Shown here one piece after another: positions 6,144-64,000 of a stretch of 64,000 bases of DNA. The notes under the pieces were generated by a model. The model did no database searches. It was given only the letters and a program-made list of their open reading frames with translations, and was not told the origin of the DNA. Every line of letters starts with the position of its first letter. Positions within the stretch are counted from its first letter, which is position 1. The DNA is from Pseudomonas phage PaBG. The stretch lies in the sequence record KF147891.1. One strand, given 5' to 3'. The translations under genes were made by a program, and so were the position numbers.

Positions 6144-6354
6144 GGGGAATCCTCCTTTGTGTAGTTTTACAGTTTCGGAGGCCAAAAAAAGGGCGACTAC
6201 CGTTAGGTAGCCACCCAAGTCGTAAGTCCCTCTCAGGACGAGCAGGCACGATCGGACGCGAAAGGAGTAACGCTCGCCGCCTTTCCGAAGCTCGCAGCAA
6301 CACCGGAAGTGGCGATTAACCGATCGTGCCTGCTCTTACTTCACGAAATTAGCA

Positions 6355-56227: not shown

Positions 56228-56303
<76 letters not shown>

Positions 56304-56325
56304 TATTCTCTGGAGATACACGAAC

Positions 56326-56799
56326 ATGCCGCAAGTTTCTGCGCCAGAAGGCGATGCGCTACTCGACCTCGCCAACATGCCTGATCCTGCCATCGACGAT
56401 GCGTTCGATCTTCACCTGATCGAGGCGAATGACGGCGTATGTCGTGCGGTCGCGCCGATCTTCAAGTCCCTGCAACTGGCGCTGTCCGATATGAGTTACA
56501 CGGACAACGGTGCGCAGTACAAGGAAGAAACTGGACATCGCGGTGCGCTGACGCTGGAGTTCTTCAACAACGTCGGTGGTCAGCAGTGGATCGACGGTTG
56601 CGACGCGCTCATCGCCGAACTCGATGCCGTTGTATTCCACGTGTACCATGCCAACGGCGAGCTGTACAGCGAACTCCGCTTCTCTGGCTTGACCGAGCCG
56701 GAGTTCACCCGCGAGTTCTCGCACAGCGATCCGACAGTGCAGGTCCTGCAGTACGTCTGGCTGTTTGCCGACGTCAAGGAAACTGTGAAAGAGCAGTAA
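56326..56799 (+). CDS. hypothetical acidic protein
   Basis: A GGAGAT Shine-Dalgarno; 157 aa. Confidence 0.55.
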   Translation: MPQVSAPEGDALLDLANMPDPAIDDAFDLHLIEANDGVCRAVAPIFKSLQLALSDMSYTDNGAQYKEETGHRGALTLEFFNNVGGQQWIDGCDALIAELDAVVFHVYHANGELYSELRFSGLTEPEFTREFSHSDPTVQVLQYVWLFADVKETVKEQ

Positions 56800-57111
56800 A
56801 GAACATCCGACCGCCGATTGCGTGCTCGTCCCACGTGATCGACGGTTTTGGCAGCGACTCCGCTAAGCTGCCGACCAGATGGGTGTGCGGAAGGGTTCGG
56901 CGGAGGTAGCAACTTCGCCGTCGATTGGCCAGTGCAGCGCGTCCTCAGCGTACTCGTCCTACGCAGTCCTCAGCGCTGTACCGCCGTTAGCGTTTACCAA
57001 GCGCCTGCCGAATGCCTGCTCGTCCCAGGATTGGCTGGCCAAAAGACGCAAAGCCCTGCTCGACTTTCCGGTGGAGTAGTAACCGGCTCGATTACTTGAA
57101 GGAGAACAGGC

Positions 57112-57348
57112 ATGTTCCTTTCGCTTTGCCTTGGGCTTGCTCTGGTGTGCGTTGAGCCGACTGCTCCGCCTACACGACCAGATGTCGTGTACTACCAGAC
57201 AGAGACCCGCATGGTTGCTGTTCGGGAATACACCGAACCAAAAGAAGTCGCCGCACTTCCGGAACAGAGTGGCGGTGCGCCCTATCCACGATCAGCGCCT
57301 AACGACCGCGGTCGTGAAGGCCACCGATGTACCATCGGGGTTGCCTAG
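57112..57348 (+). CDS. small secreted/lipoprotein-like protein
   Basis: An AAGGAGAAC Shine-Dalgarno 6 nt upstream. N-terminus MFLSLCLGLALVC; 78 aa. Confidence 0.35.
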   Translation: MFLSLCLGLALVCVEPTAPPTRPDVVYYQTETRMVAVREYTEPKEVAALPEQSGGAPYPRSAPNDRGREGHRCTIGVA

Positions 57349-58105
57349 CTGTCCGGAGCTTCCGCGATCCCGCCCCAAACCGAAACACCACATCGCTAGG
57401 CTTAACGGCCAACAAAATCGCTGAGAGCGAATGAAGTGCGCGAGAAATCGTAGGCACTAAGAAAGGGCAAGGCGGCACGTTAGAGAACAAGGCAAGAGGC
57501 TGACTCGCTGGATTTAGCGACCAGATGCGCCGGGAAACAAACCTCTGCCGCCTGCCAACCTAAAGCGGACTGATGAGTGGTTCAAGTCCACATGGCGAAA
57601 GCCTCGGGTGAAAGGCCCACGAAACTCAAACGAGTATCCGCATGAACGCCGCTCCTGGATGAGCGGTGGGTTCAAGTACACCGACCCACTAATCGGGTCG
57701 TTTCTCGGAGCTGCTTCTGCTGAGATTTCTGTGCGTAGTGAGAAGCCATAGGAGCCTTCGGATACCTGGTCGGCTCATGCCGATAGCGCTTTTTCATCGG
57801 CGCTATCGTACAGGGTTATGGTGGTCATGTGAAACACAAGCACATGCACGCTGCACTCGTTCCCGCCCGCGAGTTCCACCATGCCTGCGGTGAAAGCCAC
57901 AGGTGCAGCCTATTTATGCCATCACGCTCGGCAACGTGCTGAGAAGAAAGAAACGATAAGGCGAGTCTACATACGCCGATCGGCCGCATAGCAGCCCATT
58001 GTGGCAGCCGCATAGTGCCGATTGCCGTTGCGACCAAGCACTTGGACACAAACGCTTCTTGAGTCGTCGAGCGTGATGGCACCCTATTGAACAGAGGTAA
58101 CACGT

Positions 58106-58288
58106 ATGTGTATTTGCCGCCGTGCATGGTTCCTGATTGTCGTCAGCGCATTGTACCTGTTGGGTTGCGTTGTCGCATGGTCCATGGGTTGTCTGAATGT
58201 TTACGTCAACCCGGCACAGCTGGTATACGTTGCCGTTCTCTCTGTTCCGCTGTGGTGCAAGTCAGTAGGACGTTTGCTTCACATGTGA
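58106..58288 (+). CDS. small hydrophobic membrane protein
   Basis: A GAGGTAACACGT Shine-Dalgarno; 60 aa with two hydrophobic helices. Preferred over the overlapping-frame ORF 58087..58296. Confidence 0.35.
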   Translation: MCICRRAWFLIVVSALYLLGCVVAWSMGCLNVYVNPAQLVYVAVLSVPLWCKSVGRLLHM

Positions 58289-58294
58289 GTCTGT

Positions 58295-58388
58295 GACCCA
58301 GTAGCTCAGTTGGTAGAGCGCGTGAACGCCTGCGCCGATAGCGGGAGTAACGTCATAGAGGTCGAGAGTTCAAATCTCTCCTGGGTCT
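58295..58388 (+). tRNA. aberrant tRNA-like gene (94 nt, extra roughly 20 nt between D-arm and T-arm; identity unresolved)
   Basis: Perfect 7-bp acceptor (GACCCAG/CTGGGTC), canonical D-arm GCTCAGTTGGTAGAGC and T-arm GAGAG-TTCAAAT-CTCTC. The 43-nt middle does not fold into a standard anticodon arm plus variable loop; a possible CCTGC-GCCGATA-GCGGG arm would need 8-9 extra nt. Confidence 0.4.
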
Positions 58389-58605
58389 GCCTATTTCTGT
58401 AAAGGATGTACACGATGTTGCCGTCAATGCACTTTCCACTAAAGCGTCCTGTGCTTACTCCAGAAGAAGCCAGTGCGTCGCGTGCCAGAACCCTTGAGGC
58501 TATTCGCAAATGCCGCGAAGCCCAAGCTGAACTGGAGCGAGTTTGCCGTGAGAAAGGCATTGAGATTCCGGTGATGGTCTGTCGTTCTAGTTTCCGAGTT
58601 CGTTC

Positions 58606-58681
58606 GGGTCGTTAGCTCAGTTGGTAGAGCATGGCGCTTTTAACGCCGTGGTCGTTGGTTCGAGTCCAACACGACCCACCA
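58606..58681 (+). tRNA. tRNA-Lys (anticodon UUU)
   Basis: Acceptor GGGTCGT/ACGACCC, anticodon stem TGGCG/CGCCG with loop CTTTTAA, T-arm GTTGG-TTCGAGT-CCAAC, and an encoded CCA. Confidence 0.65.
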
Positions 58682-58689
58682 GTTTCATA

Positions 58690-58765
58690 GGCCCCATAGT
58701 CGAGCGGTTAAGACGCTTGCCTGTCACGCAAGAAATCGCGGGTTCGATTCCCGCTGGGGTCGCCA
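58690..58765 (+). tRNA. tRNA-Asp (anticodon GUC)
   Basis: Acceptor GGCCCCA/TGGGGTC (one G-U pair), anticodon stem CTTGC/GCAAG with loop CTGTCAC, T-arm CGCGG-GTTCGAT-TCCCG, and CCA. Confidence 0.65.
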
Positions 58766-58766
58766 T

Positions 58767-58843
58767 AGGACGTTAGCTCAGTTGGTTAGAGCATCTGACT
58801 TTTAATCAGAGGGTCCTGGGTTCGAGTCCCAGACGTCCTACCA
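58767..58843 (+). tRNA. second tRNA with UUU anticodon (Lys)
   Basis: Acceptor AGGACGT/ACGTCCT, anticodon stem TCTGA/TCAGA with loop CTTTTAA, T-arm CTGGG-TTCGAGT-CCCAG, and CCA. It differs in sequence from the first Lys tRNA. Confidence 0.6.
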
Positions 58844-60688: not shown

Positions 60689-61192
60689 ATGCTTGGATTA
60701 TTCGGCAACGTGACTGTGAAGAAAGGCAAGCGGAAACGCAAATTCAAGAAGTACCGCCAGTACGAATACGATTTCTACGGGCGCAAGCTGGTGCTGCAAG
60801 GCTACGAAGCACAAGCGCTTGAGTACCTTGTCGAAGTCGGCGGGTTCGATCCTGCGGACATCAAGACCGAGTGCGAGTTCGGCGACGCCCTGAACATCCG
60901 TTACAAGTATTCGGGCAAATGGCGTTCCTACATGCCTGACATTTTCATCCGCAACCACAACATCATCGTCGAAGTGAAGTCGAAATCCACGATGGGCTTG
61001 TTGAACAACAAGAAGCGTGGTTGGTCGATGAACCAAGCCAAGGCGAAGGCGTGCCATGCCCGCGGTTTCAAGTTCTGCGTGCTTCTGATGACCGACTCAG
61101 GCAAGCGCATTCCGCTGCCGAAGAACTGGCCGCTGATGAAGAAGGCGGAGTGCCTGCGCATCATGCGTGAGGAGCTTGGAGTTCGCATCTAA
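60689..61192 (+). CDS. PD-(D/E)xK endonuclease, T7 endonuclease I / TnsA-N-like (candidate junction-resolving or homing nuclease)
   Basis: Start at MLGLFGN after an ATGAGGAGATTTGCC Shine-Dalgarno. YMPDIFIRNHNIIVEVKSKS carries the D-x9-E-V-K core. Confidence 0.5.
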   Translation: MLGLFGNVTVKKGKRKRKFKKYRQYEYDFYGRKLVLQGYEAQALEYLVEVGGFDPADIKTECEFGDALNIRYKYSGKWRSYMPDIFIRNHNIIVEVKSKSTMGLLNNKKRGWSMNQAKAKACHARGFKFCVLLMTDSGKRIPLPKNWPLMKKAECLRIMREELGVRI

Positions 61193-61231
61193 ACTGTAAA
61201 CTCCAGCTATACCAACACAGAGCACACGGAC

Positions 61232-61879
61232 ATGAGCATTACCTACAAGTACGGAAACGGCAAGTTGATCGGCTACCGTTCCGTAGACAAGTTTCATGGT
61301 GGCCTGTCGTTCAAGTTTCATCCAGACGGCGGAGACTCGTTCGATCGGTTCATCGACAAGGGTTTGATTCTCGAAATCAAAACTCAGTACGGTGAGCAAA
61401 CGATCGCGCTGAAACGGAACGACTACCGCGTAGTTCCCGAGCTGTGGAACTGCACCACGCTGATTTTCCAGAGTAACGAGTTGGCGCGCTCGCTCCACCT
61501 TGCTCTCGACGTTGAAGGCTTCCTGCACGTTTCGACACACAGCACGGCGACCCTTGCCGCTGAGTTGGCGAGCACCATCACGCACCAGCTGGCAACACCG
61601 TTCATGAAGCGCAAGCAGATTGACGTGCATCTGCGTAGTGAGCCCAGCGTCATCGCGCATTCCATTCTTCGGTGCATCGGGCTCAACCGATTCGCACCCG
61701 GCATGGACGTCAAGACGTTCTACCAACAGCATACGCCAGAAGCAGCCTACTCTGCGCTGTGTGCGTGGCTGAGCAACAAAGACCTTCGCGTGAACTTCCT
61801 GCCGCATGATGGCACGAAGCGCGCCGCATTCGTTTCTCGCATTGGCGAGAATGTTTTGGAGTTCGCCGAACAGGCGTAA
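61232..61879 (+). CDS. hypothetical protein
   Basis: 215 aa. An AAACTGTAAACTCC motif lies 31 nt upstream. Confidence 0.55.
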   Translation: MSITYKYGNGKLIGYRSVDKFHGGLSFKFHPDGGDSFDRFIDKGLILEIKTQYGEQTIALKRNDYRVVPELWNCTTLIFQSNELARSLHLALDVEGFLHVSTHSTATLAAELASTITHQLATPFMKRKQIDVHLRSEPSVIAHSILRCIGLNRFAPGMDVKTFYQQHTPEAAYSALCAWLSNKDLRVNFLPHDGTKRAAFVSRIGENVLEFAEQA

Positions 61880-61896
61880 GCAAATAGGACCCATCA

Positions 61897-62693
61897 TGGC
61901 AGCCGTACGTAAACTATCCGACCTGAAAGAAGCTGGCTACAACCCGCGCGTCATCAGCAGCAAGCGCCTCAGCAACCTGCACAAGTCCATGACGACCTAC
62001 GGCGACCTGAGCGGCGTCGTGTTCAACGTCAAGACCAAGACCCTGATTTCCGGCCACCAGCGCCTCAAGCCGCTGCGTGATGCTGGCATCAAAGTCGAAA
62101 TCAAGACCAAGCCCATCACCGACAAGTTCGGCACTGTAGCCGAAGGCTACGTCGTCGCCAAGACCAGCGCCGGCGAGCTGCGCATCCCGTACCGCGAAGT
62201 ATCCTGGAGCGACAAGAAAGCCGAGTACGCTGCCAACATCGCTGCAAACGCTCACGGCGGTGACTTCGACCGCACCAAGCTCGGTACCCTGCTGGCTGCT
62301 CTGGAGAAGGGCAAGTCGTTCGACATCGACGTTCTGGGTCTCGATCCGTTGAGCGTGCGCAGCCTGATGCCGAAGATGCCGAACGTCGAAGGTAGCGGTG
62401 ACGATGACGGTGAATCGTTCCAAGAGTACGGCGAGGACAGCTTCGAGTTCGATCATCAGTGCCCGAAGTGCAAGTTCCAGTTCAACTCCAGCTCTGCAAG
62501 CAAGCCCAAGAAGGACAAGCCGCAACCCAAGGCGCCGAAGCTCGACGTGAAGAAGGCCAAAGCCGAAGTCAAAGCCAAGAAGATCAAGGCTGAGAAGAAG
62601 ACCGACAGCAAGGCCAAGTCCAGCGCCGCAAAAGAATCGCTGAAAAAAGCGAAGTCCAGTAAGCTCAAGGCCAAGATCAAGAAGGCCAAGTAA
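61897..62693 (+). CDS. ParB-like nuclease-domain protein with zinc ribbon and histone-like Lys-rich tail
   Basis: Start at MAAVRKLSDLKEAGYNPR. ISGHQRLKPLRDAGI matches the ParB/Srx signature GxRRxxA. CPKCKFQF is a zinc ribbon. The tail reads KPKKDKPQPKAPKLDVKKAKAEVKAKKIKAEKK... Confidence 0.6.
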
Positions 62694-62704
62694 GTAGGTC
62701 AGCC

Positions 62705-63712
62705 ATGGAAAAGAAAATCGTCAAGATACCTTCGATGAAGAAGATCAACGCTCTTCCGAAGGCATTCAAAGGCATCAGTTCGTTCTCCGGTTGTGGCGGG
62801 AGCTCCACTGGTGTGAAGATGGCTGGCGTCCAAGTGCTGCTCGCAACCGAGTTCATCAAGCCAGCCATCGAAACCTACGAGAAGAACCACAAAGGCACCA
62901 TCGTCATCGGTGAAGACATTCGCAAGGTCGACTGGGAGTCGTGGCGCAAGGAGCTCAAGCTCAAGCGCGGCCAGCTGGACTTCTCCGAAGGCAGTCCGCC
63001 GTGCAAGTCCTTCTCGACCTCTGGCACTGGCAGTGACGACTGGGGCAAGGAGAAACTCTACTCTGAGAACGTCTACCAGCGCACCGATGACCTCTTCTAC
63101 GAGGAAATGCGCAAGCTGGAAGCGTTCATGCCCAAGGTCTTCGTCTGCGAGAACGTCAAGGGCATGGTTGAGGGTGACGCCAAGGGTTACTTCATCGAAA
63201 TCCTGCGTGACCTTAAAGCAATCGGGTATAGCGTGAAGGCGCAGGTGTTGAACGCTGCCCGTCTCGACGTACCCCAAGCCCGCGAGCGCGTGATCTTCGT
63301 TGGTGTGCGTAACGACTTGGTGAAGAAAGGCTTTGAGCCTGTGTTCCCCAAAGCGAAGCCGTACGAGGTGAACGTCAACGACGTCCTACCTCACATTGCG
63401 TACCTCAAGTCGAAGTACCGAGGCGACATCAAGTACGTCCCAGCTTCGATCCCGAGTCCTACGATCGTGGCGAGCGATGGTACCAACAGTGAGACTGCCG
63501 GCTTCTCGTCTGGCGGCTTCATTGAGACTGTCGATGGCGAGCGCCGCAAGTACACCATCGACGAGTTGAAGAAGATTTTCACCTTCCCGGATGACTTCAT
63601 CTTCACTGGTACCTACAAGCAGCAGTTCGAGCGTCTCGGCCGCTCAGTTCCGCCACTCATGATGTATCGCGTAGTCGCGGAGCTTCGCCGCCAGATTCTG
63701 GAGAAGCTGTAA
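62705..63712 (+). CDS. DNA C5-cytosine methyltransferase-family enzyme with Arg in place of the conserved motif-X Asn
   Basis: Motif I FSGCGGSSTG, motif IV GSPPCKSFS (the PC catalytic Cys), motif VI ENVKG, motif VIII QARERVIFVG. The C-terminus reads RLGRSVPPLM where the canonical motif is G-N-(S/A)-V. Confidence 0.75.
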   Translation: MEKKIVKIPSMKKINALPKAFKGISSFSGCGGSSTGVKMAGVQVLLATEFIKPAIETYEKNHKGTIVIGEDIRKVDWESWRKELKLKRGQLDFSEGSPPCKSFSTSGTGSDDWGKEKLYSENVYQRTDDLFYEEMRKLEAFMPKVFVCENVKGMVEGDAKGYFIEILRDLKAIGYSVKAQVLNAARLDVPQARERVIFVGVRNDLVKKGFEPVFPKAKPYEVNVNDVLPHIAYLKSKYRGDIKYVPASIPSPTIVASDGTNSETAGFSSGGFIETVDGERRKYTIDELKKIFTFPDDFIFTGTYKQQFERLGRSVPPLMMYRVVAELRRQILEKL

Positions 63713-63717
63713 CCCAA

Positions 63718-63740
63718 GGGAGTCTTCGGACTCCCTTTTT
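63718..63740 (+). terminator. rho-independent terminator GGGAGTCttcgGACTCCC-TTTTT (identical to 48235)
   Basis: Exact repeat of the terminator following the primase-operon gene. Confidence 0.6.
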
Positions 63741-63793
63741 ATGGCCTCCGAAACTGTAAATCCACAGTATAATCCATTGGTTGGAGCCTAAAC

Positions 63794-64000
63794 ATGAGCC
63801 AAGAACCTGTAGTAGACAACCACGTCCCAGGCGAACGCTGGGAGTTCAACGAGGACGTAGCCAAGCAGTTCGACCTGATGCTGGAGAAGTCGATCCCCGG
63901 CTACGGACAGATGCGTGATCTGGTGTATCGCATCGGCAAGCGTTTCGTTCAGTCGCCGTCGAACGTCATCGATCTGGGTGCTAGCCGTGGTGAAGCCGTG
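63794..64000 (+). CDS. CmoA-like carboxy-S-adenosylmethionine synthase-family protein, partial (continues beyond right edge)
   Basis: GERWEFNEDVAKQFDLMLEKSIPGYGQMRDLVYRIGKRFVQSPSNVIDLGASRGEA aligns closely with the remembered E. coli CmoA N-terminus [55 protein letters not shown]. A TGGAG Shine-Dalgarno precedes it, and an AAACTGTAAATCC motif lies 33 nt upstream. Confidence 0.55.
   Translation, partial: MSQEPVVDNHVPGERWEFNEDVAKQFDLMLEKSIPGYGQMRDLVYRIGKRFVQSPSNVIDLGASRGEAV

Follow-up and report, generated by a model that had tools for sequence, protein, structure and literature searches.

A candidate CmoA/CmoX/CmoY-type DNA hypermodification module in the Pseudomonas jumbo phage PaBG

The PaBG locus and its CmoX-type methyltransferase

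The DNA analysed here, hereafter the window, comprises 64,000 nucleotides of the genome of Pseudomonas phage PaBG (KF147891.1), and its end (61232-64000) is filled, according to open reading frame (ORF) calling, by four plus-strand genes. Three of them form the core of a candidate DNA hypermodification module, encoding (i) a divergent ParB-like protein, (ii) a C5-cytosine methyltransferase (MTase) homologous to the CmoX enzyme of Synechococcus phage S-B43 (SpCmoX), and (iii) the N-terminal part of a homologue of CmoA, which in S-B43 makes carboxy-S-adenosylmethionine (Cx-SAM) (Yang et al., Nat Commun, Dec 2025, PMC12783734). The genes of this core and the codons on which its interpretation turns are as follows:

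61896..62693, plus strand: divergent ParB-like protein, 265 amino acids, ATG at 61896
62705..63712, plus strand: C5-MTase, CmoX-type homologue, 335 amino acids
63002..63004, plus strand: codon of the catalytic Cys100, in G-S-P-P-C-K-S-F-S
63005..63007, plus strand: codon of Lys101, a lysine where the canonical 'PCQ' has glutamine
63641..63643, plus strand: codon of Arg313 in motif X (G312-R313-S314-V315), the position of an asparagine in ordinary C5-MTases
63794..64000, plus strand: 5' part of the CmoA homologue gene, truncated by the end of the window after exactly 69 codons

An earlier note on this DNA, made from the letters alone, had called the same three ORFs, and all of them lie where it placed them, save that the ATG of the ParB-like gene is at 61896 and not at 61897.

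The MTase is a member of the C5-cytosine MTase family (PF00145, 1e-51; TIGR00675 dcm, 1.2e-44), is 100% identical to the DNA cytosine methylase annotated in PaBG, and agrees with M.HaeIII, M.HhaI and Dcm (PF00145) in fold family and in the catalytic motifs I, IV, VI and VIII, as the earlier note had read it when describing a Dcm-type enzyme with a GRSV motif X. The alignment of its own family displays invariant motifs I, II, III, IV, VI and VIII, with the signatures FxGxGG, SPPC, ENV, QxRxR and GR. The best match among structures of the PDB is SpCmoX (8YF3, 5.4e-56), with HaeIII as the runner-up (3.4e-22), and the window MTase and SpCmoX share 35% identity from end to end (3e-66).

SpCmoX uses only Cx-SAM, and S-adenosylmethionine (SAM) not at all, to write 5-carboxymethylcytosine (5cxmC) at GC sites, and in its 1.9 Å structure (8YF3) Arg350 replaces HhaI Asn304 and contacts the carboxylate, with the R350N variant being inactive (PMC12783734). 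The SPPC motif of the window MTase, S97-P98-P99-C100, aligns with S95-C98 of SpCmoX, R313 aligns both with the asparagine of HaeIII 'GNAVP' and with SpCmoX Arg350, and all six residues named for 8YF3 are kept (F25/E47/F48/D69/C98/R350 corresponding to F27/E49/F50/D71/C100/R313). Candidate CmoX enzymes were defined by Yang et al. through SPPC together with an arginine at the R350 position (PMC12783734), and the window MTase contains both. Compared to ordinary C5-MTases, with their GN(A/S)V and PCQ, it displays GRSV and PCK, and its gene is linked to that of a Cx-SAM synthase homologue; the ordinary Dcm-type signature, Gly-Asn in motif X and Pro-Cys-Gln in motif IV, is thus absent, with GR and PCK in its place.

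A parallel comes from protein engineering. In M.MpeI N374K and M.CviPI Y205K/R, obtained by the Kohli laboratory, a cationic residue at the structurally equivalent site of the active centre allows the use of Cx-SAM and the formation of 5cxmC, in M.MpeI N374K through a salt bridge with the cationic side chain (PMC13288465). The M.MpeI N374K position is that of HhaI Asn304 and SpCmoX Arg350, a parallel to the engineered enzyme that Yang et al. themselves draw (PMC12783734), so that the earlier note's placing of the engineered residue at the motif-X asparagine proves correct (PMC12783734, PMC13288465). The engineered single mutants are still SAM-active, whereas the natural SpCmoX accepts Cx-SAM alone (PMC12783734); the window enzyme belongs to the natural clade and, in addition, has PCK in place of PCQ. 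The proposal that this MTase is pre-adapted to accept Cx-SAM is, at the level of sequence, well supported by the arginine, the SPPC motif and the ranking of 8YF3 (5.4e-56) over HaeIII (3.4e-22).

Whether an arginine in motif X is ordinary variation was addressed at 168 loci with relatives of the MTase, 88 viral and 80 from bacterial genomes, reading the motif-X residue of each from the hidden Markov model (HMM) alignment and seeking CmoA in the 8-kb flanks. A CmoA neighbour is found at 101 of the 106 Arg-type loci (viral 74/78, genome 27/28) and at none of the 45 Asn-type loci (viral 0/9, genome 0/36), the combined Fisher p = 3e-33 being no true probability since the loci are not independent of one another. 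The earlier note had held that its reading would fall if the motif-X arginine were common among ordinary Dcm-like enzymes, and these counts indicate the opposite: the arginine goes with CmoA and is not ordinary variation among such enzymes. It is also invariant across 34 members of the MTase family. A second change is correlated with it: nearly every Arg-type MTase has Ser, Ala, Lys, Cys or Val in place of the glutamine of 'PCQ', and Asn-type relatives mostly keep Gln after the catalytic cysteine; the residue is Ser in SpCmoX and Lys in PaBG-like CmoX, where Lys101 may offer the carboxylate a further contact.

The distribution of these genes is broad. Phage data surveyed by Yang et al. hold 5,615 candidate CmoX, 4,257 CmoA, 2,251 ligases and 1,660 ParB-domain neighbours (PMC12783734). 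A collection of isolate phages contains 57 records with a close CmoX homologue and 80 with a CmoA homologue, and by organism the overlap is large, with 48 Erwinia, 2 Dickeya, 2 Streptomyces and 1 Yersinia records in each set; Synechococcus isolate phages account for 3 CmoX and 6 CmoA records. Arg-type CmoX and CmoA, without CmoB, also occur in bacterial chromosomes, plasmids and metagenome-assembled genomes (L098-L161), for instance of Verrucomicrobiota, Nonomuraea, Verrucosispora, Hymenobacter and Azospirillum, and on a Scytonema plasmid; no CmoB lies next to the MTase among the bacterial-genome loci.

Some relatives carry an interrupted CmoX gene. In L092, L094 and L097 (3006-5138) it encodes 710 amino acids with an intein inside (PF14890), and similarity to the window is lost near the Cys100 codon. 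For the CmoX of Erwinia jumbo phages, the tblastn match is limited to residues 100-332 and the corresponding family, phrog_36001, comprises 715 positions, which suggests, from sequence comparison, the same intein insertion site at Cys100.

The CmoA homologue and the genes beyond the window

Two metagenomic contigs, L093 and L001, were used as proxies for the sequence past base 64000, on the grounds that (i) they show 97% and 89% DNA identity, respectively, to the window's final 5.4 kb, (ii) the N-termini of their CmoA proteins are identical to the window fragment at 69/69 residues, and (iii) the 150-amino-acid protein encoded after their cmoA is 100% identical to PaBG gp307. The 69-residue fragment itself already matches TIGR00740 (1.2e-11, 44.7 bits) and E. 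coli CmoA (7e-10), well beyond chance and bearing out the likeness noticed earlier, although a fragment does not by itself establish a complete enzyme. Full-length homologues in both contigs comprise 258 amino acids, and the L001 protein matches TIGR00740 from position 14 to 239 of 239 (4.5e-39), with BioC as the next family at 0.009. The possibility, raised beforehand as damaging, of a generic SAM-dependent MTase downstream is therefore not borne out by these 89-97% identical contigs, in which the ORF is a CmoA homologue from end to end.

Database matches of the full-length proxy protein agree with this assignment. Its best PDB matches are H. influenzae YecO (1IM8) and E. coli CmoA (4GEK); it matches phrog_4752 at 1.2e-74, SpCmoA, the S-B43 enzyme, at 4e-31 with 28% identity, and E. 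coli CmoA at 3e-28 (phmmer). PaBG-like CmoA keeps 42 of the 67 positions that are identical in E. coli CmoA and SpCmoA, a count over all such positions. The cofactor chemistry is presumably shared with the E. coli CmoA/CmoB pathway (b1870/b1871), which makes 5-carboxymethoxyuridine at position 34 of tRNA (cmo5U34); in the PaBG-type module, on the other hand, the part of acceptor enzyme falls to a homologue of DNA C5-MTases, and a search of the window and the PaBG-like loci found no CmoB partner. Compared with E. coli CmoA and SpCmoA, PaBG-like CmoA has about 15-20 additional residues inserted near positions 110-140. Arg199 of E. coli CmoA corresponds to Arg214 in PaBG-like CmoA and to a glutamate in the active SpCmoA, and this position was not used as a criterion.

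All PaBG-like loci share one gene order, comprising a 215-amino-acid ORF, the ParB-like gene, the MTase gene, cmoA, the gene of the 150-amino-acid protein and a ligase gene, the last of these being:

L001:12333-13160 and L093:6464-7288, same strand as cmoA: CmoY-like, Asn-synthetase-like ligase of 274/275 amino acids, assigned by homology to SpCmoY and PF00733

The ligase is 33% identical to the S-B43 enzyme SpCmoY over 89% of the length (6e-36), matches PF00733 Asn_synthase at 2.8e-6 (27.7 bits, cut-off 21), and contains a PP-loop-like SSGVDS motif. A match to such a CmoY-like ligase lies within 8 kb at 27 of the 88 viral loci.

The 150-amino-acid protein yields a confident structure model without an informative structural neighbour. 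Its candidacy as a chorismate mutase supplying prephenate was dropped, there being no Pfam match and the model being rich in β-strands.

Proposed pathway and competing explanations

The natural system to which the PaBG genes can be compared is that of S-B43, in which CmoX and CmoA suffice for 5cxmC, 5cxmC blocks HhaI, and SpCmoY ligates glycine to the 5cxmC carboxylate, the virion DNA containing the glycine amide and no free 5-carboxymethyl-deoxycytidine (5cxmdC) (PMC12783734). The earlier note, which knew of no described natural system of this kind, is overtaken by that publication of December 2025: the concept is already published for S-B43 (PMC12783734), and the PaBG module is a further, uncharacterised member with variant features. 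Neither PaBG nor Pseudomonas is mentioned in the text or supplements of Yang et al. (PMC12783734). Both phages encode the same three enzyme families, and ParB-domain neighbours occur in 1660 contigs of that paper's data. The S-B43 order is cmoA-cmoY-cmoX, whereas PaBG-like loci comprise the 215-amino-acid ORF, the ParB-like gene, cmoX, a putative terminator, cmoA, the 150-amino-acid gene and cmoY, and thereby add a conserved 150-amino-acid protein. PaBG is a 258-kb jumbo phage of a Pseudomonas host, with a module known here from its genes alone; S-B43 is a Synechococcus phage for which the pathway was shown experimentally.

By analogy, the module can with good confidence be regarded as PaBG's form of the CmoA/CmoX/CmoY pathway of DNA hypermodification in phages. 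What was observed directly is sequence homology, the conservation of motifs, the order of the genes and their co-occurrence in genomes, and every chemical step is carried over from the S-B43 enzymes. The phage CmoA homologue would convert SAM and host prephenate into Cx-SAM; CmoX would flip out a cytosine, with Cys100 attacking C6 and Arg313 holding the carboxylate of Cx-SAM, and would move the carboxymethyl group to C5, generating 5cxmC at a short motif in phage DNA. The CmoY-like amide ligase, a PP-loop protein whose gene is the second one past cmoA, would most likely adenylate this carboxylate and couple an amine, glycine or another, and the phage DNA so modified would be shielded from host restriction. 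With that ligase gene two genes 3' of cmoA, 5cxmC probably does not stay as it is and would be an intermediate on the way to an amide. The carboxymethylation logic of the earlier note thus holds up, and its choice of 5cxmC as the mark itself has probably to give way to a product one step on.

Several points weigh against this assignment. Just 69 codons of cmoA lie inside the window, the remainder being taken from contigs of 89-97% identity, and the L001 CmoA scores 134.5 bits, under the NCBIfam equivalog cut-off of 193.3; SpCmoA, for its part, is biochemically active though even further from E. coli CmoA in sequence (PMC12783734). The ligase is merely 33% identical to SpCmoY, so the amine is not transferable by homology. 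The target-recognition region of the MTase (about residues 210-267) fails to align with SpCmoX, and GC specificity cannot therefore be assumed for the PaBG enzyme. The co-occurrence counts are phylogenetically non-independent, ParB-domain neighbours have no assigned role even in the published system (PMC12783734), and the PaBG genome paper mentions neither a methyltransferase nor modified DNA.

Among the competing explanations, the one closest to the proposed pathway regards 5cxmC itself as the final mark in virion DNA, with the downstream Asn-synthase-like gene unrelated or inactive. CmoX and CmoA are indeed enough for 5cxmC and for the block of HhaI (PMC12783734), and at many related loci a CmoA is present but no CmoY is detected in the surrounding 8 kb; nevertheless, every PaBG-like locus has the gene of the CmoY-like ligase on the same strand, after cmoA and the 150-amino-acid gene, its homology to SpCmoY extends over most of its length, and S-B43 virion DNA held the glycine amide with zero free 5cxmdC (PMC12783734), so that this outcome seems rather unlikely. 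Somewhat less probable still is that the phage CmoA serves RNA, mainly or additionally, by supplying Cx-SAM to a host CmoB for cmo5U34 on phage tRNAs, the MTase being a separate matter. The classical function of CmoA is tRNA modification, the window encodes tRNA-Thr(UGU) and tRNA-Ala(UGC), and Thr-UGU and Ala-UGC isoacceptors carry cmo5U34 in Gram-negative bacteria. Against such a role stand the lack of CmoB in the window and its relatives, the adjacency of cmoA to an Arg-type MTase, a pairing seen at 101/106 Arg-type and 0/45 Asn-type loci, and the inability of SpCmoX to use SAM (PMC12783734), which implies that an Arg-type MTase needs Cx-SAM. A CmoA serving both DNA and tRNA is nevertheless possible.

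A further reading is that of an ordinary SAM-dependent 5-methylcytosine MTase, of Dcm or orphan type, in which the arginine would be neutral and the CmoA neighbour a coincidence. The protein is a solid member of PF00145 and TIGR00675 with all catalytic motifs, and the engineered Lys/Arg variants of M.CviPI keep SAM use in vitro (PMC13288465), but the arginine is invariant in the clade and tied to CmoA in the same 101/106 versus 0/45 loci, the nearest solved structure is that of a Cx-SAM-specific enzyme (8YF3), and the canonical 'PCQ' is altered as well, to PCK; we consider it the least credible of the explanations weighed here. Hardly more credible is a CmoA acting chiefly as an anti-defence SAM sink, depleting host SAM in the manner of phage SAM lyases, with DNA carboxymethylation secondary. 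Yang et al. pose this as an open question and report that SpCmoA outpaces the E. coli enzyme about 10-fold (PMC12783734), yet the idea is speculative everywhere and does not account for the ligase and the dedicated MTase of Arg type encoded beside cmoA.

Within the CmoA/CmoX/CmoY assignment, the PaBG-type module might be a distinct, larger variant, comprising the ParB-like partner, Lys101, the 150-amino-acid protein and a divergent ligase, and yielding an adduct that differs from the glycine amide (5gcxmC), with modification directed to phage DNA by the ParB-like protein as an alternative or additional feature, a possibility that we put forward tentatively and do not favour. The assignment places the recently found 5cxmC pathway in a cultivable Pseudomonas aeruginosa jumbo phage, whose host is genetically far easier than marine Synechococcus, and the differing gene set could reveal the roles of the accessory proteins and which amide decorates the DNA. 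DNA of PaBG-like phages may resist restriction enzymes and act oddly in bisulfite, enzymatic-deamination or nanopore analyses.

The ParB-like partner, locus layout and transcription signals

The ParB-like protein comprises (i) a ParB N-terminal-like domain (about residues 1-150), (ii) an acidic linker (161-200) with an invariant CPxC, and (iii) a lysine-rich tail (201-265) containing 42% Lys with an isoelectric point of 10.5, for which the expression 'histone-like tail' of the earlier note is apt as a description. That note had also named a ParB-nuclease domain. A relationship to ParB is indicated by phrog_620, 'ParB-like partition protein' (2.9e-38), and there is also a match to phrog_498, an MTase family, in its N-terminal portion; searched against Pfam at E <= 1, it has no match, PF02195 included, and NCBIfam likewise returns nothing. 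Its family comprises 266 members with invariant NPR, DLSG, GHQR, AN..GG.FD and CPxC, among which NPR and GHQR occupy the positions of ParB conserved boxes, as in ParB N-terminal proteins, and PF02195 is reached by 7 of 39 family members, at best with 3.7e-4.

The AlphaFold2 model displays a predicted local distance difference test score (pLDDT) > 80 over the N-terminal 150 residues and a β-hairpin insertion. Its top Foldseek match is the ParB-like PadC, at probability 0.99 but weak in its other scores (E 7e-3, template modelling scores 0.27/0.49), with Spo0J lower, and the profile search against the PDB gives ParB 4UMK with a weak E of 0.023. Compared to ParB-MTase fusions (PF02195; phrog_620, phrog_498), the PaBG protein is encoded by a separate gene and carries the β-hairpin insertion, the CPxC and the Lys-rich tail.

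Homologues of the ParB-like protein are encoded directly 5' of the MTase at 18 of the 88 viral loci. Three of these (L032, L071 and L088) have Asn-type MTases, with GNAVPP and PCV, and no CmoA nearby, which indicates a partner of the MTase clade and not of carboxymethylation as such. The accessory role suggested in the earlier note is thereby shorn of its specificity for carboxymethylation, and the ParB-like protein would most likely assist the MTase by binding DNA.

The remaining features of the locus concern its transcription:

61191..61200, plus strand: AAACTGTAAA promoter-like motif, copy 1, overlapping the stop codon of the upstream gene, 32 nucleotides before the ATG at 61232
61232..61879, plus strand: 215-amino-acid ORF, which seems to head an operon that continues with the ParB-like gene and the MTase gene
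63716..63742, plus strand: intrinsic-terminator-like hairpin after the MTase gene, 9-bp stem and UUCG loop followed by a T-run, with a putative terminator role
63751..63760, plus strand: AAACTGTAAA promoter-like motif, copy 2, 5' of cmoA, followed by TATAAT at 63768-63773

The 215-amino-acid ORF has zero matches in Pfam or PHROG; it occupies the equivalent position in the PaBG-like loci L001 and L092-L097, and a homologue occurs in L011. Exact copies of AAACTGTAAA number four in the window, at 6166 (minus), 49572 (minus), 61191 (plus) and 63751 (plus), each about 25-45 nucleotides 5' of an ATG and on the same strand as the gene downstream. With up to one mismatch there are 12 matches in the 64-kb window against 2.4 expected, located on the minus strand up to 49.6 kb and on the plus strand from 53.6 kb on, a switch consistent with the divergent gene blocks described for PaBG. 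A longer form, ggcctccgAAACTGTAAA, is common to the copies at 63751 and 6166 (minus strand). The motif is likely a phage promoter element, as predicted from these properties.

All three core genes had been described earlier as lying under promoters of this type. Exact copies precede the 215-amino-acid ORF (61191) and cmoA (63751), as claimed in part, and the scan of the window finds none directly 5' of the ParB-like or MTase gene, which consequently look co-transcribed with the 215-amino-acid ORF. The hairpin at 63716-63742 divides two apparent transcription units, with the MTase gene before it and the promoter-like site of cmoA after it, the start of cmoA being 82 nucleotides past the MTase stop codon. 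Direct folding gives this hairpin -15.2 kcal/mol with a z-score of merely -1.9, and the consensus terminator scan does not list it.

Elsewhere in the window, a plus-strand cluster at 56228-58843 comprises five tRNA genes, Thr(UGU), Ala(UGC), two Lys(UUU) and Asp(GUC), as many as the PaBG genome paper reports. The tRNA-Ala call, of 94 nucleotides with the anticodon at position 37, is unusual and may hold an insertion or be a miscall. Across the whole window (1-64000), the observed/expected dinucleotide ratios display a strong depletion of TA (0.53), low values for GG (0.78) and CC (0.73), and a slight over-representation of GC (1.11) and CG (1.16).

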